Positions 2 to 52,032 are shown, numbered from the stretch's first letter. The stretch is 64,000 bases of DNA from Candidatus Lloydbacteria bacterium RIFCSPHIGHO2_02_FULL_50_18 (GCA_001821395.1 MHLM01000004.1:32001-96000); one strand, 5' to 3'. Program-made: numbers and translations. The notes: generated by a model from the sequence alone, not told the origin.

Positions 2-1480
2 AATCTCGACAAAGGGAATTCCGCATTCAATTTTTGGCTTCAGGGTCCTGAATACGCCAACGAAACCGGACGAGTGACATTCATTGGAGGAAGCCAGAAC
101 AGTATCTCAGGGAAAGCTCTTCCCGTGCTCCGGATCACTTTCAAGGTGAAAGGGGCTGGACCGATCGCGATCATCTTTTCTGACGGTGCGGTTACCGCGA
201 GCGACGGAAGCGGTACGAACGTCCTTTCCGCGATGAACGGCCTGCATCTAACAAGCATCACGAAGCAGGATGCAACGTTCATTAAACCTCCCCAGATCGA
301 ACGCCCGGCAACGCCGTCGGTCGTGCTACCCGTGAAGCCGGTGATCACCGTCCCCCTCTACCCGGAACAGGAAAAATGGAGCAATGTATCCGCACGATTC
401 TTTGTAAGTTGGAAATTGCCGTCCGATGTCACCGCGGTTGCAGTGGCGCTCAATAAGACCCCTCTTTCATCACCAGCGGTGTCGGAAGGACTTTTCGAAC
501 TCAAAGAGTTCGCTCCGCTTCAGGATGGGGTCTATTATCTTCATGCGCGCTTTATGAACGACGAAGGATGGGGGAAGGCCCTCCATTATCGTATCGCTGT
601 CGACACACTGCCCCCACCGCTTTTTAAGATCGACATTGCCGCACTGAGCGATAATCCTACTCCAACAGTGGTCACAAACGTGGAGGATGCGCTTTCGGGT
701 ATCTCTAGCGTAGTATTTCTTGTTGATGACAAGGAAGTACTTCAAACTGCAAGTACGTCAGCAAAACTGCCCCCCGTAGGTCCAGGATCGCACGTATTGC
801 GGGTGAAAGTCATTGACCGTGCGGGGAATAGCTCCGAGGAGAGCACCTCATTTGAGATCACACCGCTTCCGACGCCGATCATAGAATTTCTTTCCGTTTC
901 TGCTACCCTCGAAGAACCCGTTATTGCACTTGGAAAATCCATTCCAAATGCATTCATTGATGTCAGCGTATTGAACGCTCTGCAACAGGAGATATTGAAG
1001 GATACCGTTGAAAGTGACACTTCAGGAGTCTGGAGAGTGAACCTAGGGCAATCGCTCCATTCTGGGAAATACACGCTTGCGGTAACCGCTCGGGACGTGC
1101 GTGGGGCATTAAGCTATCCCACCAAAGACGGAGCATTCAGGGTGCGACCGCAAGTGGTGCTGTCGTTCGGAGGGCTTATCGATCTTAGTTGGTTGGAGAT
1201 ATTTCTTATCACATTAGTCTTCATTATCGTTGGAGGAGGTCTTGCCGCATGGCGCTATGTTTCGGAGAAGCGGGTTCGAGAAGCGTACAAGATCGTCGTG
1301 AGCCAGGATGTTGAAAAGTTTGGCTCCATGCTCTCGTCTTCTCTGAAAGAACTTGGGGCCATACAAAGAGTTCCCGAGCCGGGTCGGTCAGCAAAGGTAG
1401 CGTCACTCGTTGCATCGATGAAAGATCGGGTCGCAAAATTGAAAAAGTATATCGGTACGGAGGTGAGTAAAATGAAGTAA
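2..1480 (+). CDS. 5'-truncated surface protein with a C-terminal transmembrane anchor, probably built from Ig-like repeats
   Basis: The ORF is open to the window start, so the gene begins upstream. It is 468+ aa of repetitive beta-rich sequence, with a single hydrophobic helix near the C-terminus (LITLVFIIVGGGLAAW) and a charged tail. A hairpin + T-run terminator follows. Confidence 0.45.
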   Translation, partial: NLDKGNSAFNFWLQGPEYANETGRVTFIGGSQNSISGKALPVLRITFKVKGAGPIAIIFSDGAVTASDGSGTNVLSAMNGLHLTSITKQDATFIKPPQIERPATPSVVLPVKPVITVPLYPEQEKWSNVSARFFVSWKLPSDVTAVAVALNKTPLSSPAVSEGLFELKEFAPLQDGVYYLHARFMNDEGWGKALHYRIAVDTLPPPLFKIDIAALSDNPTPTVVTNVEDALSGISSVVFLVDDKEVLQTASTSAKLPPVGPGSHVLRVKVIDRAGNSSEESTSFEITPLPTPIIEFLSVSATLEEPVIALGKSIPNAFIDVSVLNALQQEILKDTVESDTSGVWRVNLGQSLHSGKYTLAVTARDVRGALSYPTKDGAFRVRPQVVLSFGGLIDLSWLEIFLITLVFIIVGGGLAAWRYVSEKRVREAYKIVVSQDVEKFGSMLSSSLKELGAIQRVPEPGRSAKVASLVASMKDRVAKLKKYIGTEVSKMK

Positions 1481-1502
1481 GAATTATTTCTTTGTTCAAC
1501 AA

Positions 1503-1531
1503 AAACCAGCATGACAGTGCTGGTTTTTTAT
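1503..1531. terminator. bidirectional rho-independent terminator
   Basis: Hairpin aaaaaCCAGCAtgacagTGCTGGtttttt with A-run and T-run flanks, so it reads as a terminator on both strands. Confidence 0.6.
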
Positions 1532-1533
1532 GT

Positions 1534-1671
1534 GCGGAGGGGGCGAGATGTTCGACGCCTACTGCGTCAGTACCCGTTTCCCATTTTCTCAACATAAGAA
1601 TGTCTCGAAAATAGGGGAGAACGGCTTCGAATCTCGCACGAAAGTCGAGCAGTCGACTTTCTCTCCTCCGC
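1534..1671 (-). repeat. tRNA-3'-end mimic mini-element, instance 1
   Basis: On the minus strand it reads: GCGGAGG acceptor-like stem; hairpin AAAGTCGA-CTGC-TCGACTTT; GCGAGATTCGAA; a 77-nt insert (module B, 1549-1625); then TCTCGCCCCCTCCGCA. That last part copies the T-stem/acceptor 3' strand of the tRNA at 1710-1796 immediately upstream. Module B is about 97% identical to 45097-45171. Confidence 0.5.
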
Positions 1672-1707
1672 ATAAAAAAATCACGCTCATGCGAGCGGAT
1701 TTTTAAA

Positions 1708-1796
1708 TGCGGAGGGGGCGAGATTCGAACTCGCGGACCGTTTAACGGGTCGACAGTTTAGTAAACTGTTGATTTAAACCACTCATCCACCCCTCC
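1708..1796 (-). tRNA. type II (long variable arm), Ser-like tRNA whose canonical fold gives anticodon ACU; possibly aberrant or a pseudogene
   Basis: Manual fold: acceptor GGAGGGG/CCCCTCC, discriminator G73, D-arm GAT-GAGTGGTTTAA-ATC, anticodon stem ACAGT/ACTGT with loop TTACTAA, 17-nt variable arm, T-arm GCGAG-TTCGAAT-CTCGC. The architecture parallels tRNA-Ser(GCT) at 2392-2481. Confidence 0.55.
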
Positions 1797-1836: not shown

Positions 1837-2216
1837 GAGAGGGCGGGAATTGGTCACAAGTCATACCATCTCCAGTTAACTCTTTCTGCTCACAGAAGTT
1901 TCAAAGGTCAGTCCTTGGCCCTGCCTGCGCAGGCAGGTTTGAAAGGTCTCTCCTTGGAAACTGATTCGGAAGACCTTAACGAGAGATGGTATCACTAAGC
2001 GTATGCGGAGCAAGGCTCCTTATCCGTTAAGTGCACCACGGAGAGGGCGGGAATTTCTCGGCTTACAGCCGCAATACACCTTTGCGATTTATTCAGCATA
2101 AGAATGCTTCACAAATATCACCACGAGGAGTACTTCATTTTTCTAAGACGGAGTACCGTTAAGAAAAATTGGTCGCGCAAAGCTTTTCGAATCTCTTTGC
2201 GAGAGGGCGGATGCGG
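1837..2216 (-). repeat. array of degenerate mini-elements downstream of tRNA-Ser, each ending in a partial copy of the tRNA-Ser 3' end
   Basis: GAGAGGGCGG(GAATT) occurs at 1837-1851, 2041-2056 and 2201-2216; it is the reverse complement of the tRNA-Ser acceptor 3' strand/T-stem. An inverted copy TTCGAATCCCGCCCTCTC lies at 2329-2346. The insert next to it starts AGACGGAGGCG, as does the insert at 45256. Confidence 0.45.
2125..2178 (-). repeat. conserved intergenic hairpin repeat (family M2), copy 1
   Basis: Reads (g)AGTACTTCCATTTTTCTAAG-stem-loop-CTTAGAAAAATTGGTCGC. Two related copies lie at 34395-34449 and 35550-35600. Confidence 0.6.
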
Positions 2217-2391
2217 TCACGAGTTACTAAGCTTTTTATTTCGCTTCGCTCATAAAAATCTAAGTACTCTCGACCCCGACTCGGCTACGACCTTCGACGA
2301 GCTCAGGTCGGCTTCGCGCCTCCGTCTTTCGAATCCCGCCCTCTCGCGCAATGGCATATTAAAAAAGACCTTTCGGTCATTTTTAAGCCAT

Positions 2392-2481
2392 TGGCGGAGA
2401 GGGCGGGATTCGAACCCGCGAGGGGTTTTATCCCCTGCCACGTTAGCAGTGTGGTGCCTTCAGCCGCTCGGCCACCTCTCC
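2392..2481 (-). tRNA. tRNA-Ser(GCU), type II, with encoded CCA
   Basis: Manual fold: acceptor GGAGAGG/CCTCTCC, anticodon loop CTGCTAA (GCT), long variable arm CAGGGGATAAAACCCCTCG, T-arm GCGGG-TTCGAAT-CCCGC, G73 then CCA. Confidence 0.85.
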
Positions 2482-4059: not shown

Positions 4060-5175
4060 ATGCCGAATCCGTTTGAAAAATTACTTGCCTCGTTCGCACC
4101 AAAAAAAGGGGGGAATGGCGTCGTGGGGGTGGACATTGGAAGCGCATTCATTAAGGTCGTAGAGTTGCACAAAAAGAATGGTAAGGCGGTGCTCGATACC
4201 TACGGCGAGATCGCTCTTGGTCCGCTTGCATCCCTTGAGGTTGGACAGGCGACAAACCTCACGACGGACAAGCTCGTTGAAGCGACGAATGATCTCTTTC
4301 TTGAAGCCAACGTCAAAAGTCGAAATCTCGTTTTTTCCCTTCCGCTTACATCGACCTTGGTGACGGTCATTGAAATGCCCGATGTCGGAGAGGCTAAATT
4401 GAAAGACATGATCCCGATGGAGGCGCGAAAGTATATCCCAACGTCTGTATCTGAAGTATCACTTTCACATTGGGTTATACCGAAGATCTCGCGTACCTAT
4501 ATCGATCCTGATAAGGCTGATGCGGAAAAAGGGGCACCTGCGAAGGTGGATGTGCTCCTTGCCGCAGTGCACAATGATGTGTTGGCAAAATACACCGATA
4601 TCGCCAAAAAACTTGGTGCAACGGCAACCGCATTTGAGATCGAGATATTTTCTACTATCCGTTCAACGATGAGCCGTGATACTACGGCGACGATGGTCGT
4701 TGATATCGGGGCGGGAAATACAAAGATCGCGATCGTTGAAGAAGGCGTTTTGCGGAGTTCTCATCTTATTAACGTAGGGTCCCAAGACGCAACGCTTGCA
4801 CTTTCACGTGCAAAAAGCATCAGCCTCCTCAGGGCGGAGGAGATAAAGCGCGAGTTCGGACTCTTGGGTGATCCGTCGGATGCATCGATCGCGGAGATCA
4901 CACGACTAGCTGTGGAACGCATCTTTTCCGAAGCAAGCCGAATTATGATGAACTACCAGCATGAAAAGCGCGTCAGTATCAATCGTGTCGTGCTTTCCGG
5001 AGGAGGGGTACTCATGAAGGGTGTCATGGATCTTGCGCAAAAAAGTTTTGAGACGACGGTGGTTAATGGTGATCCGTTTGCAAAGGTTGAGTCGCCTGCC
5101 GCCATCACTCCGCTCCTCAAGGAGTCCGGACCTGAGTTTGCGGTCGCCATTGGACTTGCGCTTCGAAATCTGTAG
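4060..5175 (+). CDS. pilM: type IV pilus assembly protein PilM (actin-like ATPase fold)
   Basis: GVDIGSAFIKVVEL N-terminal motif and the overall PilM/FtsA-like pattern. The start was chosen at MPNPFEK; the ORF is open from 3982. Confidence 0.75.
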   Translation: MPNPFEKLLASFAPKKGGNGVVGVDIGSAFIKVVELHKKNGKAVLDTYGEIALGPLASLEVGQATNLTTDKLVEATNDLFLEANVKSRNLVFSLPLTSTLVTVIEMPDVGEAKLKDMIPMEARKYIPTSVSEVSLSHWVIPKISRTYIDPDKADAEKGAPAKVDVLLAAVHNDVLAKYTDIAKKLGATATAFEIEIFSTIRSTMSRDTTATMVVDIGAGNTKIAIVEEGVLRSSHLINVGSQDATLALSRAKSISLLRAEEIKREFGLLGDPSDASIAEITRLAVERIFSEASRIMMNYQHEKRVSINRVVLSGGGVLMKGVMDLAQKSFETTVVNGDPFAKVESPAAITPLLKESGPEFAVAIGLALRNL

Positions 5176-25111: not shown

Positions 25112-25185
25112 GCGGTGGTAGCTCAATTGGTTAGAGCACCCGCCTGTCACGTGGGAGGTTGCGAGTTCGAGTCTCGTCCGCCGCG
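25112..25185 (+). tRNA. tRNA-Asp(GUC)
   Basis: Acceptor GCGGTGG/CCGCCGC, anticodon loop CTGTCAC, T-arm GCGAG-TTCGAGT-CTCGT, G73; CCA not encoded. Confidence 0.85.
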
Positions 25186-25193
25186 CAAATACA

Positions 25194-25219: not shown

Positions 25220-25234
25220 TGTTTGCACGGTGGA

Positions 25235-25392
25235 GGAAGCATCTGCATGCTTCCGACGAGACTCGAACTCGCCATCACCATGATGAGTACTTCCAATTTC
25301 ATACTCTCTGTAGTCGTTGAAATTTAGGTCGCTCCATAAAGCCTGCGATGACGATCTCGAATAAGCTTCGCTTCTCGTCCGTCCCGTAAATA
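25235..25392 (+). repeat. tRNA-3'-end mimic mini-element, instance 3 (downstream of tRNA-Asp)
   Basis: Hairpin GGAAGCAT-CTGC-ATGCTTCC; GACGAGACTCGAA, the inverted copy of the tRNA-Asp T-loop/T-stem; a ~105-nt insert ending ACGATCTCGAATA; then TCTCGTCCGTCCCGTAAATAC, an 85% copy of the last 21 nt of tRNA-Asp including the downstream AAATAC. Confidence 0.5.
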
Positions 25393-26432: not shown

Positions 26433-26500
26433 ATAGTGTGCCGCCTTAGCTCAGTTGGCAAAAGAAAGTCAGACAGCTCACTCGTTACGAGTGTTGAGGA
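26433..26500 (+). pseudogene. pseudo-tRNA: 5' part plus anticodon-arm-like copy of tRNA-Thr(CGU), lacking a T-arm
   Basis: The 26-nt ATAGTGTGCCGCCTTAGCTCAGTTGG is identical to 26529-26554. CAGCTCACTCGTTACGAG matches the CATCTCACTCGTAACGAG anticodon arm of the real tRNA. No T-arm or acceptor 3' strand follows. Confidence 0.55.
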
Positions 26501-26534
26501 AGATGGTGTAAAATAGTGAACAATTGAATAGTGT

Positions 26535-26610: not shown

Positions 26611-26746
26611 AGTAAATAGTTTCGCTCAGTTGGTAAGCCAAGTCCGCAAAGCCAGACACTGGGTTGGCTTTTTCGTAGCAGTGTCGCCCACCGGCGACGC
26701 ACCACACAACTCGTCTTCTCCGCTACGCTGCGAAAACGATCTCGAA

Positions 26747-26800
26747 TAGAGCATCTCACTCGTAACGAGAAGGTCCGCAGTTCGATCCTGCGAGGCGGCT
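26747..26800 (+). repeat. direct duplicate of the 3' 54 nt of tRNA-Thr(CGU), an attR-like scar
   Basis: AGAGCATCTCACTCGTAACGAGAAGGTCCGCAGTTCGATCCTGCGAGGCGGCTCT is identical to 26557-26609 except the terminal CT versus CCA. It is preceded by ACGATCTCGAAT, the same module end seen at 25356. Confidence 0.8.
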
Positions 26801-26923
26801 CTAGAAAAAGAACGTAGTATTTTTTTGTCCGCCTCAAGAAAATAACTGCTTGTTTTCTGGCAGGATCGAATAGCGAAGCTAAAAAGCCGCGCATATGCGC
26901 GGCTTTGTGTACTCACTCATTTC

Positions 26924-44841: not shown

Positions 44842-44941
44842 GATGATCTCATTATAATCCCATGATGACTTGAAAAATAGGGCGAATTGGCTATACTGAG
44901 CCGACTGTTCTAAGACGGTTTTGTTTTAGGCTTTATATCAT

Positions 44942-45014
44942 TGCGGGTTCGTCTAATGGTAGGACATCGCCCTCTGGAGGCGAGTATTGGGGTTCGAGTC
45001 CCTGACCCGCAGCA
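44942..45014 (+). tRNA. tRNA-Gln(CUG)
   Basis: U1-A72 acceptor (TGCGGGT/ACCCGCA), anticodon stem TCGCC/GGCGA with loop CTCTGGA, T-arm TGGGG-TTCGAGT-CCCTG, G73. Followed by hairpin GAAAACACCCC-ttttaat-GGGGGTGTTTTC. Confidence 0.85.
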
Positions 45015-45051
45015 AATGAAAACACCCCTTTTAATGGGGGTGTTTTCATTT

Positions 45052-45189
45052 GCGAGGAGAGGAAGCCATCTGCATGGCTTCCGGCAGGGACTCGAAGCCG
45101 TTCTCCCATATTTTCGAGACATTCTTATGTTGAGAAAATAGGAAACGGGTACTGACGCAGTAGGCGTCGAGATTCCCTGACCCGCAGCA
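45052..45189 (+). repeat. tRNA-3'-end mimic mini-element, instance 2 (downstream of tRNA-Gln), carrying module B
   Basis: Hairpin GGAAGCCAT-CTGC-ATGGCTTCC; CAGGGACTCGAA, the inverted copy of the tRNA-Gln T-loop/T-stem; module B at 45097-45171, about 97% identical to 1549-1625 in the opposite orientation; then ATTCCCTGACCCGCAGCA, the tRNA-Gln T-stem/acceptor 3' strand. Confidence 0.55.
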
Positions 45190-45234
45190 GCCGCACAAAA
45201 CCACTCTGTATGGAGTGGTTTTGTTTTGCGGTTG

Positions 45235-45442
45235 CTCGCGGGTCAGGGACTCGAAAGACGGAGGCGGTCTACGCCGCCACTTTCCTAAGTGCGGTGTCGC
45301 CGAGCGACATTGTTTTCTTATGAGTAAGCGAGTTAGAAAACAAGAAGTACTCTTGTGGTGCCGGGGTCGAGAGCACTTAGGCTTTTGGCTGCCTTGCGCC
45401 AAAATATTTAGTGACTCGTGATCAAGTTTGACCCGTAGACAT
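45235..45442 (+). repeat. second tRNA-Gln-derived mini-element with a different insert (module C)
   Basis: CTCGCGGGTCAGGGACTCGAA (inverted copy); an insert starting AGACGGAGGCG, as at 2217-2326 in reverse complement; a degenerate terminal copy TTTGACCCGTAGACA. Preceded by a long hairpin at 45175-45232 built from the tRNA-Gln 3' end and its complement. Confidence 0.4.
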
Positions 45443-45547
45443 GTCGTGCTCTTATGATGCGCGTTCTTTTTTAAAAAATATTTTGAGAACAAAAAGAAGC
45501 CTATTTTGTGGTTAAAAAAACCGCAAGCCTTTACTTGCGGTGATATT

Positions 45548-45826
45548 TCAGGGAACACTAATGGTATTGCGGCCGAATGGCCACGACGTGCAGACATAAA
45601 GGGTTATACTTTTTCCTTGCGGCGAAGTTGCCGAGACAGTTAGGCGCGCCGAGTCGCCTCGTACACAACCAGACATGATAAGTATTGATTTGTCGATGAC
45701 TTTTATGTTCGTATAGCCGAACGGCTCGAGTGTCTGGTTGGCGATGTCATCATTTACAAAATAGCCCCGGGTGCCAAGCGCAAGTATCATCAACAATGTG
45801 AATGCTACGCCGATTTTGTGTAACAT
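45548..45826 (-). CDS. small secreted hypothetical protein
   Basis: GGAGGG SD 8 nt upstream of the ATG; signal-peptide-like MLHKIGVAFTLLMILALGTRG; terminator at 45500-45540. Confidence 0.45.
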   Translation of the reverse strand: MLHKIGVAFTLLMILALGTRGYFVNDDIANQTLEPFGYTNIKVIDKSILIMSGCVRGDSARLTVSATSPQGKSITLYVCTSWPFGRNTISVP

Positions 45827-46040
45827 AGACAAAACCCTCCTCGTGAACAAACCGCCATAAATAGTACACCAGTAGCTTTGAGAGTCAAGAATGATCAGAA
45901 AATGTAGCAAGTGCACCTAGTGCTCTTCGTATCAGATATATCGACACCAAGTCATCCGACCAAGGTGGGCTTGACTGACCACGGTTTTATCTAGGGTCGG
46001 CCAGCTTTTAAAAACAGAAAAGCGGTATAATTCAGAGTAT

Positions 46041-46394
46041 ATGAATATTTCTAAGAAAAAATTTGTTGCCCTCTTCCTCATTTCTGCGTTTGCCTTTCAA
46101 TTCATCTCCAACTCACTTTTTGGGTCAGACGTTCGACTCTTTCCTCAGAAAGGGGAGTCTTTGTTGGGGACGGATCCACAAATAGGCTGGAAGAGTGCCG
46201 GATACAAAATTCAATTGCCTATCAAAATTGTTTTGATGGGACCCATGCTGCTTTCTACTGATTTTTTGCGAGATGATCCACCACCTCCATTTGTTGCCGC
46301 TGTATTTGCTCTCTACTGGTCGATCCTTGCCTTATTTATTTACTATCTTATCGGTATTATAAGTAGAAGACATCCTCTATGTGTTTCTGCTTGA
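46041..46394 (+). CDS. hypothetical membrane/secreted protein
   Basis: 117 aa with N- and C-terminal hydrophobic segments. Confidence 0.35.
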
Positions 46395-46548
46395 GTGCTT
46401 GGGTAATTTTGTGAGCAAGGAGGAGAGATGGGTTATATCTGTTTTGTTCAAGCGAAATAATTGTTTGTCTGGTTACTCCTGCAAGTTCAGCAAGTTTTTC
46501 TTGCGTAAGGTTTAATTTATTTCGATAAAGAGCAATGTTTGTTTCCAT
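46357..46548 (-). CDS. XRE-family HTH transcriptional regulator
   Basis: 63 aa, [35 protein letters not shown]: a classic Cro/C1-type HTH. Confidence 0.8.
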
Positions 46549-46550
46549 TT

Positions 46551-46979
46551 TTAATTTTTCTTATCTAAATAGAAATTTGAAGCGGCTTTAACGATAGTAC
46601 CAACGATGAGAGCTAATAAGATCACCGGATCAACTCTCGTGATCTCGTTTACAACAATGCCTGCGGCAATCTGATAACCGATGCCTGCGGTGAGCACTAC
46701 TAAGATAGCCCAAAGGGCATTTCGCTCAGAGATCGCTTCGTGTATTATATCCCGCTCGTCTTTCGGCACATGAACCATCATAGCTATGAAATCGATACCA
46801 AAAACGATCGCCCACAATGAGAGCAATACTACTTGCGTTGACCCAATGACATTCATTTCAGTTATGACAATTATCGGCAGTATCATAACGACAATATATG
46901 CCCAGCCTTGCCAAGTAGAAGGTGTCAGCCCCCAGCCCGTATACTTTCTTCTTTTGAACCACTCCGGTTTTGCGATCAT
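46551..46979 (-). CDS. DUF2975-like multi-TM membrane protein (usual partner of small XRE regulators)
   Basis: Four TM helices. Its start follows 3 nt after the XRE gene stop; the start was chosen at MIAKPEWF (the ORF is open to 47036). Confidence 0.45.
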
Positions 46980-47278
46980 ATAATTATGTTTATTACTAAT
47001 GTAATATATACTATACGTAAAATATATATTACACAAGCGCTATTGCGGATAACTTGCATTACGGGTAAAAGTTTCACTGCGGATATTGAATGCTAAGTCA
47101 GGAGATCGTTTTGGGCGGTCTTCCGGGGTGCCTCTTCGTGAGACCCTGAAAGGTAGTTTGTAGGGCAATGCGTCGTCTTCACTCCATCTTTTTCGCCTCT
47201 AATATTTATGCTTCTTCTAACTTAAATAGGTTCCAGTTTGTTCCTGACGCGCAGTATTTTTTTTGGTATGCTCATTTT

Positions 47279-47605
47279 ATGAAGATAGTAAATCCAAGAG
47301 TCGTCCCTGATGTAGCTCAAAAATATATCATCGCCAAGATTTTCAATAGCGATGAACTTCTGCTTTGGGGCGATCCAGAAATCGAATGGCATAAGGACAT
47401 TGCAGAAGAAATGGGTGACGCAGGCCTCGTTGTTGAATGGGTAAGGGGAGGAGGAAGATTGAAATTCGTGACTGATTCGAAAACTATTTATGTCTGGGGT
47501 AAAAGTAGTATGTATGGAGCCGCGTCATTTCGGGAAGCGAAGAACATTTTGAGGATCGCTTATTCTGACTATGACATTCTTAATGAGATCCCTCCAGAAG
47601 AATAG
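47279..47605 (+). CDS. hypothetical protein
   Basis: ORF open from 47168, with the start chosen at MKIVNPR; no known motifs. Confidence 0.35.
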   Translation: MKIVNPRVVPDVAQKYIIAKIFNSDELLLWGDPEIEWHKDIAEEMGDAGLVVEWVRGGGRLKFVTDSKTIYVWGKSSMYGAASFREAKNILRIAYSDYDILNEIPPEE

Positions 47606-47684
47606 TTCCAACGTCGTCCCCTGCATCTAATTTGATAAATGCGCTAATCTTGCTGATTGGCATTTTTTAAAGCCAATGTCTGTT

Positions 47685-47990
47685 TTATGAAAAATCTCGT
47701 TTCCCTTCCCAGGGGATACCCCCGTAGTCCAATAATAGTTCTTCACCAGATCGAATATCTCTTGAGGAGATAAAATAAAATTTATCTCCATTTTGTAACA
47801 GCCCTATGTTGGGATCTTGTGAATGATTTATTTTCTCTCCGAGGCTCGTTCTCGCATAATCCACATCAGGATTTCCCGTGGTGCTAATTCTTTTGAATCC
47901 TAACCCGATATTCTCACCGCAGACGATATTATCTCTAGTGAAAACTCCATGCCCCGCAATATTTGATCCCTTTATTTCGAGGTTGACCAT
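47685..47990 (-). CDS. minimal SET-domain protein (putative protein-lysine methyltransferase)
   Basis: 101 aa with NHSQDPN (SET NHSC(D/N)PN motif) and a C-terminal GEELLLDYG (SET ELxFDY motif). Confidence 0.6.
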   Translation of the reverse strand: MVNLEIKGSNIAGHGVFTRDNIVCGENIGLGFKRISTTGNPDVDYARTSLGEKINHSQDPNIGLLQNGDKFYFISSRDIRSGEELLLDYGGIPWEGKRDFS

Positions 47991-48020
47991 TGCTTTGATT
48001 ATAGCTTTTTGTTAATTTCC

Positions 48021-48506
48021 TCATCGTCTCCATCCCGCATCATCGAATCGTGCGCCATCTCCGTTGAGGTATTTTTGCATCATTTCCTTTGCTGGCCCTC
48101 GGCGCACCCATGCATCATTGACTCCCGTCATGTCGACAAGAATACCTGCAGTGATGATTGCAACAATGAATCCCGCGATGATGATCTTGAAATCTATCTT
48201 GTAGGAAAAATCATAGCGTCGGAGCAACCATATTCCGAGAACGAGTCCGAGTATCGCAAATACGGGCGCCCACCACGGGAAACTCGAAAGAAATTGCTCA
48301 AGGCGATATTCTCCCATTGGTCCGTGCGACCGAGAAAGAAAACGCAGTAATCCAAAAAGGAAAACTGAGACAACTATTGAAGAGACCAACCCCAAGAAGG
48401 TGAGTAGTGATCCGAGAATAAAGTATATCTTTGGGCGGGGTTTTATCTGCTCACCATGGATCTTTCCCATGATGGTGTCGGTGATGTTGTTTAATTCTTT
48501 TGACAT
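48021..48506 (-). CDS. membrane protein, putative anti-sigma factor
   Basis: Immediately downstream of, and overlapping, the ECF sigma gene; N-terminal cytoplasmic segment followed by four TM helices. Confidence 0.4.
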   Translation of the reverse strand: MSKELNNITDTIMGKIHGEQIKPRPKIYFILGSLLTFLGLVSSIVVSVFLFGLLRFLSRSHGPMGEYRLEQFLSSFPWWAPVFAILGLVLGIWLLRRYDFSYKIDFKIIIAGFIVAIITAGILVDMTGVNDAWVRRGPAKEMMQKYLNGDGARFDDAGWRR

Positions 48507-49033
48507 AAGTGTTTCATTAAGGCTTTTGCGCGACTTACGCGCGTCGCAACGGTACCCATTGGTATGCGCAGGATGTCGCTGATCTCTGCATACGACTTCT
48601 CTTCTATATAATACAACGTGAGCGGTTCAGCGTAGAGGAGGGGTATCTGTTCGAGGCACTTCGTCACCATCTCCACTGTTTCTTTTTGCTCGAATTCCTT
48701 TTCGATGTCTTCATCACTTACAAAATCCGCAGTATCCAAGAGAGGGACTTCACTCGGATATTTTTTGATGATGTTGAGTGCCACATTATGTGCAATACGA
48801 TATATCCAGCTCGAAAATTTCTTTTTTACGTCAAAACCGTTGAGATTGATGTACGCGTTAATGAAGGCTTCCTGGACGACGTCGGTCGCCATGTGTTCAT
48901 CCTTGATGAGGTGAGTGACGTAGCGGAGTAGTTTGTGTTGATATCGCTCAATGAGTATAGCGTAAAGATCCCGATCAGTTGATCGAACTTTTTCAACTAT
49001 TGCTTCATCTGAAAGTTTTTCGTTCTCGTCCAT
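48491..49033 (-). CDS. ECF-type RNA polymerase sigma-70 factor
   Basis: Region 2 (YRIAHNVALNIIKK) and region 4 HTH (YAEISDILRIPMGTVATRVSRAKALM); 180 aa. Confidence 0.8.
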   Translation of the reverse strand: MDENEKLSDEAIVEKVRSTDRDLYAILIERYQHKLLRYVTHLIKDEHMATDVVQEAFINAYINLNGFDVKKKFSSWIYRIAHNVALNIIKKYPSEVPLLDTADFVSDEDIEKEFEQKETVEMVTKCLEQIPLLYAEPLTLYYIEEKSYAEISDILRIPMGTVATRVSRAKALMKHLCQKN

Positions 49034-49120
49034 ATAAAAATTCTACTCAGTATTATTGATCATGTACACTAAATCCCCGATCGTGACTCGGGGTAGTGTG
49101 CTTGGGGGTTGTGCTTTTGC

Positions 49121-49492
49121 TTAACGATTCATGTGCCTGCCCATCCCTTTTCCTCGTCCTTCTCCACCTCCAACACCGAGGCCAAGTTCTTGGCGGATCT
49201 TTTGTGCTTCAGCGATCTTTCCTTGCTCTGCCAATTCATGAGCCTCAGCAAATTTTGCAAAGTTCCCCTGATTGATGACTTCCGTTGCTCGTCCTCGTCC
49301 TTGCATCAGCTCTTTCCATGCATTGTAATCCTTCTGCTCAAATACCTTCTCCATTGCCTCATGGCGCTCTGTGCTGTAGTTTGGACCTTTAACGCTAGGG
49401 TCTCCTCTATATGCAAGCGCAGCGCTCGCGGATACCCCGAGTCCTCCAAGGACAAGTGCTGCAACTCCTAAGCCGAATAGTTTTTTGTTCAT
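49121..49492 (-). CDS. small secreted Lys/Glu-rich protein
   Basis: Signal peptide MNKKLFGLGVAALVLGGLGVSASAALA followed by a helical charged region and a G-rich tail. Confidence 0.45.
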   Translation of the reverse strand: MNKKLFGLGVAALVLGGLGVSASAALAYRGDPSVKGPNYSTERHEAMEKVFEQKDYNAWKELMQGRGRATEVINQGNFAKFAEAHELAEQGKIAEAQKIRQELGLGVGGGEGRGKGMGRHMNR

Positions 49493-49741
49493 ATGTGTTT
49501 CTCTTTAGATCAATGATTAATTTCAACCCCCTCCACTATTAATACAAGCTCAGGGAGTATTTTCTTTCATCGGTGAAAATTGCCCGAATTTCAACGTTTA
49601 TTCTCGGTCTTTACGATGGTCTTTTCCGTTGCGAGGGAGGAATGACCCGTGTGAGCTACGATCAGCGGATCGAATGACGCCTGTTGACAGTCGTTGTCTT
49701 CTTTTGACACACTTACTGAGTGAGAAGCAGGTAAAGAAATC

Positions 49742-50815
49742 ATGCATAAAGGGTACAAGCCGATAAAATTCCCGGAAGATGAATCAATCCACGATTATAT
49801 CGTTGAGTGGTGGTATTTTAACGGCCACCTGAAAGATGCAGATGGCAATGAATATCCTTTTATGGACTGTCTGTTCAAGGTGGATATGAAGAAGGTGAAA
49901 AGACCTTTTTTGAGTCGGCTGCGGATCAAAACAGCCTACTTCTCTCATTTCTCTCTTTCGGACCTAACGAATAAAAGTTTTAATCAGCGGATAGCTCCTC
50001 TTTCGCTTGTTTCCGACGATAGCTTTTCTAAACCGCTCCTCTACATTAGTTATATCAATCCCACCGTCAAAAATAGTTACACGAACTGTGTCATTGAAAA
50101 AATAGGTGAGTCAGTTTATCATCTAAAAAATGAGGACATTGATCTCCAGTTAACGTCAGTGAAGGAGCCGCTGCTCGAAGGGGGAAACGGATTTCTCGAT
50201 TTCCATTCTCGGACAACCTATTATTACTCCTTAACGAATCTCAGAACGGTAGGAAAAATAAAGGTCAATGACAAATGGATAACTGTTACCGGCAAGTCCT
50301 GGATGGATCACCAATGGGCGGATGCGAGTTATTCCGTGAATAGGTGGGATTGGTTCTCGGTGCAATTCGATGATGATACGGAAATGGTCTGCTGTGTATA
50401 TGACGATGGCAAGGTCAAGACTTTTTTTGCCGACATTTCGTATCCGGATGGTACAGAGGGGCATTACACTGAGATCGAGATCATTCCTTTGGATAAGCAT
50501 TGGACAAGTCCAAAAAGCAAGGCGGTCTATCCAGTCTCATGGAGCATTACGATACCGGAAAAAAACATAGAGGTGAATCTGACTGCAGTGATCGAAGGTC
50601 AGGAAATGCTTTTTGGGTCAATTAATTATTGGGAGGGTCCGCTTAAGGTGGAGGGTTCATTCGGGGATAAGAGGGTAATCGGTGTCGGCTTCATGGAATT
50701 GGTCGGCTATCCATCAGAGTACAGTAATGTGAGATATCTCAAGGATGAGATCGGTAAGGTCGCAAGTTGGTTTATGTTAGCAATAAGGAAAAGGGCCCCC
50801 ACCCGTGGCTCGTAG
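49742..50815 (+). CDS. CrtC/AttH-like (hydroxyneurosporene synthase-like, lipocalin-fold) protein
   Basis: N-terminal FPEDESIHDYIVEWWYFNGHL matches the P..H...EWWY.TG.L signature of the CrtC/AttH family. Confidence 0.55.
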   Translation: MHKGYKPIKFPEDESIHDYIVEWWYFNGHLKDADGNEYPFMDCLFKVDMKKVKRPFLSRLRIKTAYFSHFSLSDLTNKSFNQRIAPLSLVSDDSFSKPLLYISYINPTVKNSYTNCVIEKIGESVYHLKNEDIDLQLTSVKEPLLEGGNGFLDFHSRTTYYYSLTNLRTVGKIKVNDKWITVTGKSWMDHQWADASYSVNRWDWFSVQFDDDTEMVCCVYDDGKVKTFFADISYPDGTEGHYTEIEIIPLDKHWTSPKSKAVYPVSWSITIPEKNIEVNLTAVIEGQEMLFGSINYWEGPLKVEGSFGDKRVIGVGFMELVGYPSEYSNVRYLKDEIGKVASWFMLAIRKRAPTRGS

Positions 50816-50821
50816 TATAAT
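50816..50821 (+). promoter_or_regulatory. TATAAT -10 box 8 nt upstream of the MFS ATG
   Basis: TAG TATAAT GGTAGGTA ATG. Confidence 0.3.
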
Positions 50822-50829
50822 GGTAGGTA

Positions 50830-52032
50830 ATGAAAAAAGGACCGTTGAATGTTCATCCTGACGTCATAAAATTGGGTATCGTCAGCTTTTTGACCGACCT
50901 CAGTTCCGAGGCGATCTTTTCGGTCTTCTCCCTATTTTTTACCGTCGTGGCGGGTGCTTCAACCTCTCTCCTCGGTTTGATCGAGGGTCTTGCTGACCTG
51001 TCTGCATCTTCGCTCAACTATTTTTCCGGTTGGTTGTCAGATCGCTACGGGAAGAGAAAGCCCCTTGCCGTAGCGGGGTATGGGTTTTCAACGGTGGCAA
51101 AGACGATACTTCTTTTTGGCACATCCGTCCTCGCTCTCGGTTCTTTCAGGGTAATTGAACGTTTGGGAAAAAGCTTTCGAGGTCCGCCCAAAGATGCATG
51201 GCTCGCAGAAATGACGGATGAGTCAACGAAAGGGTATGTTTTTGGTCTGCACAAGGCGATGGACAAAGCGGGCGCCGTGCTCGGTCCGCTTGTCGCATAT
51301 TTTTTACTTCGCGTGCTCGGAGAGAGCACGGGTACGTTCCATGTGATCTTTTTTTTGGCCGTGATAACGGCTGCACTATCGGTCGTTGTGCTTTTGTTCA
51401 TAAAAGATCGTCCGGGTATTTCTCATGAACGCGAAAATATGTTTAAGGCGTGGGGAACATTAAGTCCGCAATTTCGATCGTATCTTATTCCTGCGGGAAT
51501 TTTTTCTTTAGCATATTTCAGTTTCGGGTTTCTTCTGTTGCGGGCTTATTCCATAGGTTTTTCAATGGGTGACGTGGTACTGCTTTACGCACTTTTCAAC
51601 GTTTCGTTCGTCATAATTTCCATCCCGATAGGAAAACTCGGTGACATATTCGGGCGAAAGTACATTGTTGCTTTAGGATATGTTACATATATCATCATGT
51701 CTTTAGGCTTTGTCTTTGCCACTGAAAAATGGGAGGTGGTCATCTTGTTCCTGTTGTTTGGTATTTTTTACAGTATTGATGACGCCCAAAGCAAGGCATT
51801 TATTATGGATATAGAAAAAGACAGACGGGCCACTGCCATCGGCGTGTATAACTTCGTCACCGGCTTGATCTATCTTCCCGCTTCTGTTATTGCAGGCGTT
51901 CTTTGGGTCATGAATCCCGCATATGCATTCATTTTTGCAGCTATCGTCACGAGTATCGCCATGGGCGTTTTTATCGTGTTGCGTCCCTGGAATCAAAATT
52001 TATCACAACAAGATATCACCGAGAACTACTGA
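50830..52032 (+). CDS. MFS transporter
   Basis: 12 TM helices, with the GxLaDrxGrkxxl-like loop LSDRYGKRKPL between TM2 and TM3. Confidence 0.7.
   Translation: MKKGPLNVHPDVIKLGIVSFLTDLSSEAIFSVFSLFFTVVAGASTSLLGLIEGLADLSASSLNYFSGWLSDRYGKRKPLAVAGYGFSTVAKTILLFGTSVLALGSFRVIERLGKSFRGPPKDAWLAEMTDESTKGYVFGLHKAMDKAGAVLGPLVAYFLLRVLGESTGTFHVIFFLAVITAALSVVVLLFIKDRPGISHERENMFKAWGTLSPQFRSYLIPAGIFSLAYFSFGFLLLRAYSIGFSMGDVVLLYALFNVSFVIISIPIGKLGDIFGRKYIVALGYVTYIIMSLGFVFATEKWEVVILFLLFGIFYSIDDAQSKAFIMDIEKDRRATAIGVYNFVTGLIYLPASVIAGVLWVMNPAYAFIFAAIVTSIAMGVFIVLRPWNQNLSQQDITENY

Follow-up and report, generated by a model that had tools for sequence, protein, structure and literature searches.

tRNA genes are classic landing sites of mobile DNA, and their known occupants are either gene-carrying elements or random remnants. 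In Escherichia coli, 178-bp repeats with the rtT RNA (RF00391) are found at tyrT; each repeat ends in a copy of the tRNA 3' end, a single tRNA is concerned and there is no inverted arm. The nearest documented concept for the elements described below is that of decayed cis-mobilizable elements (CIMEs) with tandem accretion (PMC5704250). Recombination on a folded strand is exemplified by the single-strand attP of CTXphi, in which a pair of inversely oriented sites folds into a hairpin stem, the substrate for recombination with a duplex target (PMC3442271). As to inserts in tRNA genes of Patescibacteria, one report describes group I introns, i.e., full ribozymes which interrupt the anticodon loop at position 35/36 (PMC13011429). 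A literature search for cassettes such as those presented here returned no published description, the nearest subject being these anticodon-loop introns of Patescibacteria.

The subject of this analysis is module B, a short sequence which is located behind tRNA genes in the window, i.e., the whole 64-kb stretch of DNA that was analysed. As the best explanation we propose, with somewhat less than even confidence, that a gene-less integrative cassette, with B as its folded core, replaces and displaces the tRNA 3' end. The window belongs to a Candidatus Lloydbacteria genome (CPR). The surrounding genes are of a bacterial chromosome type (ligA, pyrG, PBP1, type IV pilus genes), and a flanking protein is 100% identical in Candidatus Lloydbacteria bacterium RIFCSPHIGHO2_01_FULL_49_22.

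An earlier note had reported a 75-nt module, ~97% identical at two tRNA loci in opposite orientation. The duplication stands. A degenerate 74-mer has two exact matches in the window, 45097-45170 on the plus strand (copy 1) and 1552-1625 on the minus strand (copy 2), against a chance expectation of 0 (100 dinucleotide shuffles). The copies differ by 2 mismatches in 74 nt (C/A and G/A; ~96-97% identity), and the base just beyond the 74-mer differs as well (G vs A), which explains why "2-3 positions" had been counted. The orientation has to be qualified: the copies are antiparallel in the window, yet they are co-oriented relative to their respective tRNA genes. The extent given at the time, 1549-1625 and 45097-45171, contains the two matching copies but is too long for a module of its own. 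Its terminal TCGAA/TCGAG tracks the local T-loop (TTCGAAT vs TTCGAGT) and thus belongs to a tRNA-derived right arm; once the right-arm bases are removed, a tRNA-independent core of ~66-68 nt remains. On the upstream side, TCGAA from an inverted T-loop copy adjoins both copies; this inverted copy is CAGGGACTCGAA for copy 1 (45085-45096) and GCGAGATTCGAA for copy 2 (1626-1637). Insertion right after the inverted T-loop copy was thus read correctly.

The independent assemblies deposited at ENA, JGI and NCBI have identical sequences at these loci, hence module B is not an assembly artefact, which the note had considered. Nor is it a conserved UTR of orthologous genes. It resides behind tRNAs of differing identity. 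The two near-identical window copies are most similar to each other (96%); their identity to other copies does not exceed 87%, and to the third one in the window it is 58%. "Recent movement or gene conversion" was a fair reading of the 97%. The copies are probably paralogues which are so alike through recent copying or through gene conversion confined to B. That the identity is limited to B is explained equally well by gene conversion seeded in the near-invariant ends of B.

The order of elements is the same at both loci: tRNA, bidirectional terminator-like hairpin, inverted acceptor 3' strand with tail, a hairpin with a CUGC loop, CGN, inverted T-arm, module B and right arm. At the first locus an intact tRNA-Gln(CTG) is positioned at 44942-45013 on the plus strand, with a sigma-70-like promoter at 44870-44897; it has no encoded CCA and ends in G-CA. 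The interval between tRNA and cassette arm is occupied by the terminator-like hairpin (45014-45051, plus strand). Left arm and scaffold follow at 45052-45096 (plus strand). They start with an acceptor-type inverted arm, GCGAGGAGAG (45052-45061), which is Ser-like and not Gln-like, and continue with the CUGC-loop hairpin (45062-45081) and an exact reverse complement of the T-loop and T-stem 3' strand of tRNA-Gln (45085-45096). The inverted T-arm is such an exact reverse complement at both loci, CAGGGACTCGAA for Gln and GCGAGATTCGAA for Ser. Module B copy 1 comprises helix B1, the GUACUG linker and helix B2 (GACGC-AGUAG-GCGUC). The right arm (45171-45189, plus strand) consists of GAT and an exact 16-nt direct copy of the tRNA-Gln 3' end, TCCCTGACCCGCAGCA. 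In general terms, module B is followed by TCGAR, two further bases and then the exact 16-nt direct copy, which comprises the T-stem 3' strand, the acceptor 3' strand, the discriminator and CA.

The second locus is built correspondingly on the minus strand. A Ser-type tRNA with the anticodon ACT (1709-1796) lies upstream of module B copy 2. Its scaffold (1626-1704) contains the terminator hairpin (1674-1704), the inverted acceptor arm TGCGGAGGAGAG (1661-1672), the CUGC hairpin (1641-1660) and the inverted T-arm (1626-1637). The region behind B (1498-1551) contains the direct copy of the tRNA-Ser(ACT) 3' end at 1533-1551 and a second terminator-like hairpin with a T-run at 1498-1529, which is seen in the fold and is absent from the list of the consensus scan. 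The flanking arms are tRNA-specific as claimed, those of copy 1 following tRNA-Gln(CTG) at 44942-45013 and those of copy 2 the Ser-like tRNA(ACT) at 1709-1796. The period of the direct repeat is 175 bp at the Gln and Ser-ACT loci alike (offset 161 in both), and the folded portion of the cassette is ~140 nt long. A fixed 2-nt bulge, usually AT, is situated beside the T-stem helix. The T-loops of tRNA-Gln and tRNA-Asp are asymmetric (TTCGAGT becomes ACTCGAA), which demonstrates that the left arm is truly an inverted copy. Direct copying of the T-stem 5' strand as the origin of the left arm was rejected: the Gln and Asp arms fit the reverse complement at 12/12 and 13/13 positions, a direct copy poorly.

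Such elements are carried by 5 of the 8 tRNAs in the window, and tandem cassette arrays are present at tRNA-Ser(GCT) and at tRNA-Gln. The Ser(GCT) locus (2198-2481, minus strand; tRNA at 2392-2481) belongs to the same cassette family with another cargo, module A. An inverted copy (2328-2355) forms a palindrome with 28-nt arms around the terminator and is followed by module A copy 1 (2213-2327, minus strand) and a direct copy (2198-2212). The second cassette of this array has a third, degenerate B-type core (2058-2133, minus strand; ~58% identity) in which the CAUUCUUAUG apex persists. The Ser(GCT) 3' end recurs behind this core as a direct copy (2039-2054). Altogether, three direct-repeat copies of the tRNA 3' end lie downstream of tRNA-Ser(GCT). 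At tRNA-Gln a second, older cassette adjoins the first (45190-45439, plus strand), with the terminator within the palindrome; its parts are the tRNA-Gln 3' end in inverted, uninterrupted form (45227-45255), module A (45256-45423, plus strand) and a decayed direct copy (45424-45439, plus strand). Module A starts with AGACGGAGGCG, contains in its 3' part the conserved block GGGGUCGAGAGYACUUAG and ends in UUAGURACUCGUGAYC. It is located behind tRNA-Ser(GCT), in the second unit at tRNA-Gln and also in L011, and is truncated in L003. In A-type units the inverted arm is contiguous and is the mirror image of the direct copy before it; the mirrored stretch includes the non-tRNA flank about the terminator, and the arms of the palindrome are up to 28 nt long. 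A tRNA-Asp cassette (25224-25388, plus strand) has the same 5' scaffold, a hairpin GAAGCATCTGCATGCTTC which is nearly identical to the Gln hairpin, an inverted T-arm at 25255-25267, a decayed direct copy at 25373-25388 and an unrelated cargo, module C.

The window cassettes form a mosaic of shared segments. The Gln and Asp cassettes have the 5' hairpin almost exactly in common and differ in cargo; the Gln and Ser-ACT cassettes have module B in common, not the 5' hairpin; and the Gln cassette retains a Ser-like acceptor arm (TGCGAGGAGAG). A motif of module B, CATAAGAATG, had been said to recur at 2096 and 7189. The former position lies inside the degenerate B-type copy (2058-2133); the latter is without such a context and probably due to chance, the 8-mer having 8 occurrences when both strands are counted.

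The search for relatives that had been suggested yielded further copies, and with few exceptions their arms correspond to the local tRNA. Four copies came from scans for exact words (20-23 nt) of module B: another Lloydbacteria MAG (L001) has one behind tRNA-Ser(GCT), MAG GFS_12994 (L002) has an orphan, and the other two are placed behind tRNA-Trp (L003) and tRNA-Gln (L004). These have the same architecture, and the arms fit the local tRNA. Word scans force the conservation of the 20-23 nt searched in the four copies; the invariant blocks are longer (30 nt at the 3' side and ~13 nt at the 5' side). A covariance model derived from six copies found two more independently of exact matching, i.e., a divergent copy behind tRNA-Tyr in L003 (77.8 bits) and the degenerate window copy in the tRNA-Ser(GCT) array, which contains CATAAGAATG. 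Thus six B-type copies exist besides the two near-identical ones, five of them in four other genomes and the degenerate one in the window. The architecture recurs at seven tRNA-linked loci in five genomes (tRNA-Gln twice, Ser-ACT, Ser-GCT, Trp, Tyr and the degenerate Ser-GCT), plus one orphan. The inverted T-arm agrees with the local tRNA at 12/12 or 13/13 positions in six cases and at 10/12 in L004; the Tyr copy has one mismatch. Copy number is low, 1-3 per sampled stretch with three in the 64-kb window; the exact 23-mer matches once in each of two representative MAGs that were hit, a count which misses divergent copies. This is not the profile of a proliferating repeat.

In the predicted fold of module B, the linker GUACUG, retained in 7 of 8 copies, connects a long irregular helix (B1) with a hairpin of 5 bp (B2). 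B1 has a lower stem CCGUU/AACGG, then UCCC/GGGA and, after a 2-nt bulge, AUUUU/AAAAU; a symmetric (tandem) internal loop, YGAR/YGAR, separates these from a variable hairpin at the apex. Both hairpins pointed out before, GACGC/GCGTC and the CAT-tctt-ATG apex, are part of this fold. The assignment as a structured module is borne out by compensatory changes over the eight copies. In the alignment of these copies 96.1% of cells are paired, vs 37-47% with partners slid; compensatory changes affect 31 of 53 pairs (B1 10/21, B2 3/5, 5' hairpin 8/9) and the covariation score is 0.487 vs 0.162 shuffled, a value reached by 0 of 500 shuffles, all figures being based on only 8 sequences and on an alignment fitted to the model. 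A six-copy MAFFT alignment of module B alone has 99.4% paired cells vs at most 51% when slid. In arm helices 1 and 3, 85-97% of cells are paired.

This covariation is strong and speaks for the main rival explanation, which we consider possible, if rather unlikely. It states that B is the functional domain of a structured small non-coding RNA, read through from the tRNA promoter, the ends of which are clamped by a tRNA-derived acceptor/T-stem-like minihelix. As to its purpose, the clamp would shield the RNA, attract tRNA-processing enzymes (RNase P/Z "punctuation") or create a decoy or partner specific for the adjoining tRNA. The Tyr copy of L003, which was found free of search bias, speaks for an RNA as well: it compensates in the lower B1 stem (CCGUU/AACGG to AGGUU/AACCU) and in B2 (GACGC/GCGUC to GCUCC/GGAG) and keeps GUACUG and GAAAAUGGGAAAC. 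The peripheral hairpins vary in length. On the tRNA-sense strand G-U pairs exceed A-C pairs in B1, and this strand folds slightly better (mean -56.7 vs -52.0 kcal/mol). G-U excess and better folding tell which strand folds; nevertheless, they fit RNA and DNA alike, and a folded DNA strand would be equally compatible with covariation and G-T wobble. All copies are co-oriented with the tRNA, and some have a terminator after them. On the other hand, a T-run terminator-like hairpin separates the tRNA from the cassette at every locus (at the Gln and Ser-ACT loci according to the consensus scan, at the others as judged from the sequence), and no promoter-like site was seen ahead of the cassette. Together, this argues against an efficiently co-transcribed RNA. 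Further, a trans-acting RNA would be expected at one conserved locus; instead, the copies reside behind differing tRNAs in differing genomes and are missing at the orthologous tRNA-Gln of close relatives. The outward-displaced copy in the window is degenerate (58% identity), and in the fold both 5' and 3' ends are buried in a helix, with no free NCCA-like end.

Database comparisons assign module B to no known RNA family. At the gathering threshold Rfam 15 reports tRNAs only, and for 44900-45500 with E up to 10 it lists generic hairpin/miRNA-type chance matches far below threshold. Several likenesses were examined and rejected. CUGA...GUC GAA was compared by eye with the hammerhead core; the A9 and GAAA positions do not agree, and the Rfam search contains no self-cleaving ribozyme family. 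A similarity to group II intron domain V/VI (AGCCGU...ACGG, UACUGAC) is ruled out by length and pairing; moreover, group II introns are reported to be absent from Patescibacteria (PMC13011429). A match to 16S rRNA (ACUGACGC) extends over 8 nt only and is taken as chance. Coding by module B was rejected, the copies being on opposite strands relative to the overlapping ORFs 1224-1673 and 45046-45597, neither of which has a Pfam match. The cassettes do yield spurious ORF calls, e.g., a 183-aa "gene" over 45046-45597.

The tRNA-Gln loci adjoining TspO homologues (78-84% identity) permit a comparison of orthologous sites. The cargo turns over here, and five states are found: B then A in the window, A only in L011, a 38-nt mini cargo in L017/L018, a degenerate state in L014/15 and B in L004. 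The mini cargo of L017/L018 sits between arms of the same kind. The terminator-plus-A units of L011 and L017 are homologous to the distal unit of the window; consequently, B and its own terminator stand on the tRNA-proximal side of an older cassette. The distal direct copy of L011, AGTCCAGGTCCCGCAGC, reads CCAGG, in agreement with the tRNA-Gln of the sister lineages L013/L014 and in contrast to the CCTAG of the L011 tRNA itself. An original 3' end that had been displaced outward would look like this, and we regard the displaced ancestral 3' end as shown. What varies at orthologous sites is the whole cassette of ~175 bp. The suggestion that the 75-nt module itself is the transposable unit does not agree with this nor with the low copy number, and a movement of B by itself is not supported. 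The idea of a transposon with a TCGAA target duplication was also dropped, as the flanks of the Gln copy are CTCGAA on the left and TCGAG on the right.

The proposal of a gene-less integrative cassette is supported by an insert of fixed size between direct repeats of the tRNA 3' end, by an intact tRNA with a new terminator of its own, by tandem arrays, by the turnover of cargo at a single site and by the decay of a displaced copy. In this proposal the features would be connected as follows. The cassette has its home straight after the terminators of tRNA genes in Lloydbacteria-type CPR bacteria. Its arms, inverted on the left and direct on the right, would pair on a single strand to form a helix which imitates the duplex end of the local tRNA gene, and B would protrude from this helix as a two-hairpin junction. 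The 175-bp unit, comprising a replacement tRNA 3' end, its own terminator, the left arm and B, would be the insertion, bounded by a direct repeat of 16-19 bp. In an attL/attR-like manner the insertion would rebuild the tRNA, and the original 3' end together with older cassettes would be pushed outward. We infer that a site-specific recombinase encoded elsewhere may insert and remove the cassette, that it may act on the folded single DNA strand, and that B may serve as its recognition or architectural element. Integrase, transposase, HUH (rolling-circle) endonuclease or reverse transcriptase genes were found neither beside any copy nor among the 40 ORFs of the window and the loci that were scanned.

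Several points count against this cassette. Its copy number is low, and neither an excised circle nor an empty site was seen. Assemblies of the same population are all identical without polymorphism, i.e., there is no sign of present-day mobility. The conservation pattern, with invariant junction and linker, covarying stems and a variable apex, is a classic signature of a functional RNA. The model leaves unexplained how both arms are re-specified upon transfer to a new tRNA. To our knowledge, a circle of ~175 nt which bears only its own recombination site has no precedent.

Could the copies be inert scars? They would then be attP arms left from tRNA-integrating phages or conjugative elements with the interior deleted, conserved only via active source elements, a reading we regard as improbable. 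The cassettes do have the typical traits of tRNA-integrating elements and of cis-mobilizable elements in decay (PMC5704250), with the tRNA 3' end repeated directly, accretion in tandem and the tRNA left intact, and a low-GC stretch adjoins the tRNA-Gln locus. Yet seven independent tRNA-linked copies have the same boundaries and no remnant of an element gene, and random deletions would not recur in such a way. Compensatory changes in B1, B2 and the 5' hairpin demonstrate a fold under selection, and ordinary attP arms come without an inverted arm. Finally, patterns of B, module A or the scaffold have no match in 50,697 phage records, 72,556 plasmids and IMG/VR.

Template switching is a further explanation to which we give little credence. 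The palindromes would be replication by-products at terminator hairpins, extended into the tRNA 3' end and homogenised by local gene conversion, and B would be functionless. This agrees with an inverted copy which is centred on the terminator and includes the non-tRNA flank, and the patchy Gln/Ser-ACT/Asp mosaic fits frequent short-tract conversion. It explains neither a cargo which covaries across five genomes and the CUGC hairpin in most scaffolds, nor the direct copy distal to the cargo, nor the constant period of 175 bp. A programmable guide RNA like the IS110 bridge RNA or the TnpB/IscB omega RNA, with tRNA-matching segments that would lead a recombinase or nuclease encoded in trans to the tRNA gene, is very improbable. 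In its favour, a conserved scaffold is broken by two target-tracking variable segments, one complementary and one identical, and the right arm of 16-19 nt is at the 3' end of the structure, the position of a guide. Against it, the arms cover the same target segment and pair mutually so that neither is free for a target, they behave as DNA duplications (12-28 nt, flank included), a promoter was not found, and no IS110, TnpB or IscB gene is near any copy (40 ORFs scanned).

What distinguishes this occupant of tRNA loci is that it is tiny and regular, has a conserved structure, and has arms which are rewritten for each tRNA, in host genomes so small that non-functional DNA is not expected to persist. 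There is a chance, appreciable though well below even, that these are new minimal mobile elements (circles or strands of ~175 nt, little more than a self-folding imitation of the tRNA gene's 3' end plus a conserved two-hairpin core, which integrate at tRNA genes via a structure-specific recombinase and are re-targetable to different tRNAs) or, equally novel, tRNA-specific structured RNAs clamped by a mimic of the acceptor/T-arm of their partner. If they are mobile, they show how little sequence site-specific integration needs and how a hairpin imitates a target. If they are RNAs, they add a tRNA-specific class of structured RNAs to a phylum with a largely unexplored RNA biology. If either of these novel readings is true, reduced CPR genomes possess a tRNA-linked system without described counterpart. 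In practical terms, cassette repeats break metagenome assemblies at tRNA loci and generate spurious ORFs; short-read assemblies repeatedly break at the cassette loci.

How do the cassettes compare with known systems? They share with tRNA-integrating elements and CIMEs that direct repeats of the tRNA 3' end bound the insert, that the tRNA is kept intact via a replacement 3' end and terminator, that tandem arrays occur with the apparently newest unit nearest to the tRNA, and that no integrase is inside the unit. As in CIMEs, the content differs at an orthologous tRNA among relatives, the five states at the TspO-linked tRNA-Gln being the example. Unlike CIMEs, the cassette is only ~175 bp long, has no gene remnants and carries an inverted copy of the target, and its core is conserved and covarying at tRNAs of at least five identities. 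The repeats of tyrT/rtT are similar in that ~175-180-bp repeats lie directly downstream of a tRNA gene, the window loci having exact 16-nt copies 175 bp on. Neither the RF00391 sequence nor its covariance model matches, and the cassette has an inverted arm and a core in addition.

The attP of CTXphi and related IMEX resembles the cassette in several respects: inverted target-like sites, a short spacer and a one-strand stem that imitates the duplex target, a junction of the type inverted copy - spacer - hybrid direct copy, and tandem arrays at the target. The cassette differs because its arms are tRNA-derived and not dif-like, a phage genome is absent and the spacer, i.e., B, is itself strongly conserved. 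At the two window loci no dif-like XerC/XerD sites are visible; it is the tRNA 3' end that the arms reproduce. With integron attC sites the cassettes have in common an imperfect hairpin which ends each unit of an array, inverse and direct core copies around a variable or structured middle, and a 2-nt bulge (usually AT) which recalls the extrahelical bases of attC. In contrast to attC, the arm positions lack RYYYAAC/GTTRRRY cores, an IntI gene is absent from the vicinity, a terminator is all that the cassette carries, and the arms vary with the target tRNA.

MITEs and REPINs are likewise short, gene-less and hairpin-forming, have inverted terminal arms and are intergenic near terminators. In MITEs, however, the arms do not change with an adjacent tRNA as they do here, where only ~9 nt (TTCGAAGCC / GGCGTCGAA) are common to the copies. 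A short target-site duplication is missing; at the Gln locus CTCGAA/TCGAG are the inverted and direct T-loop copies. Copy number is low, and the cassettes are strictly downstream of, and co-oriented with, tRNA genes. The group I introns of Patescibacteria belong to the same phylum and are also structured RNA-like inserts, associated with tRNA genes, which are overlooked by standard annotation (PMC13011429). The cassette, by contrast, is outside of an intact tRNA, its element has ~74 nt and there is no Intron_gpI match. From bridge and omega RNAs it is set apart by the absence of an adjoining recombinase or nuclease gene and by two tRNA-matching segments that pair together. Each of these systems, MITE, integron attC, IMEX, bridge/omega RNA and group I intron, fails in at least one defining feature. 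The palindromic cassettes which flank tRNA genes in CPR bacteria thus make up an undescribed family, and module B is a conserved structured core of it.

Module A is a second conserved family of cargo in the cassettes, the gene-less units which are positioned behind tRNAs. Copies are present in the window at 2213-2327 (-) and 45256-45423 (+), and in two related loci from other genomes or assemblies, L011 (2130-2270) and L003 (about 1690-1750). The blocks AGACGGAGGCG, GGGGTCGAGAGYACTTAG and TTAGTRACTYGTGAYC are conserved; the preceding tRNAs are Ser(GCT), Gln and Tyr. In two arrays the unit of the B type, i.e., with the folded core of about 74 nt as cargo, is proximal and module A distal. The 64-kb window has ten AGTACT sites, and four of them (2129, 2263, 25286 and 45346) fall inside cassette sequence, which amounts to roughly 1.5 kb; module B itself contains GGTACTG. 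GTACT may be a motif common to different cargo types. Further, the cargos of tRNA-Asp and tRNA-Thr have a 3' block in common, CTGCGAWRACGATCTCGAATA (25340-25372 and 26718-26748, respectively), apart from which they are unrelated.

Most tRNAs directly followed by a cassette of the scaffold type, i.e., with inverted arms and the CUGC hairpin in its 5' part, lack an encoded CCA and end with the discriminator and CA: G-CA in tRNA-Gln (45011-45013), Ser-ACT (1706-1708) and Asp (25184-25189), A-CA in tRNA-Tyr of L003 (1955-1960). The inverted arm opens with TG, complementary to this CA end. CCA is encoded in the cassette-free tRNAs Met and Thr-GGT of the window, and in tRNA-Thr(CGT), which bears only an atypical D-loop insert. 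CCA is likewise encoded in tRNA-Trp of L003, which does have a cassette.

The atypical insert behind tRNA-Thr(CGT) (26624-26801, +) consists of a copy of a D-loop segment, GCTCAGTTGGTA, a cargo of 107 nt with the 3' terminus ...ACGATCTCGAA, and the tRNA sequence from position 20 through the 3' end, repeated without mismatch over 55 nt. The dinucleotide TA is present on either side of the cargo. The whole resembles a tRNA pseudocopy into whose D-loop a segment has been inserted. Directly upstream of the same tRNA (26440-26534, +), and of tRNA-Ser(GCT) in the related locus L001 (about 4702-4850, -), are incomplete, decayed copies of the 5' portion of the tRNA, which extend from the acceptor 5' strand through the D-loop and are followed by the common motif CAARAGAAANNCAGACA and a hairpin resembling an anticodon arm. 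They may represent, on the 5' side, an equivalent of the 3' cassettes.

Cassette repeats fragment assemblies. In several samples, numerous contigs assembled from short reads terminate in or next to tRNA-Gln or tRNA-Ser(GCT), or where module B begins or ends (L007-L010, L012, L013, L016, L018, L020, L022); as an example, the NCBI MAG contig MHLI01000005 begins at window position 1634. Long ORFs run across the cassettes at 45046-45597 (-), called as a 183-aa gene in public annotations, and at 1224-1673 (-). Both are very likely spurious because they match no family and are on different strands relative to module B.

The far side of the tRNA-Gln cassettes adjoins a stretch (46000-52000) with a GC content of 0.40-0.45 compared to about 0.50 elsewhere. 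Its small ORFs include an ECF-type sigma factor, a SET-domain protein and an Ocnus-family protein. The stretch is possibly an island gained by horizontal transfer; it is not bordered by another copy of the tRNA-Gln 3' end.

At 1709-1796 (-) the window encodes a class II (Ser-type) tRNA that is well formed, has the anticodon ACT and is redundant with the adjacent tRNA-Ser(GCT). It is located within the cassette array behind the latter and, therefore, may itself have arrived as cargo. With this anticodon, position 34 is A, which is unusual among bacteria.
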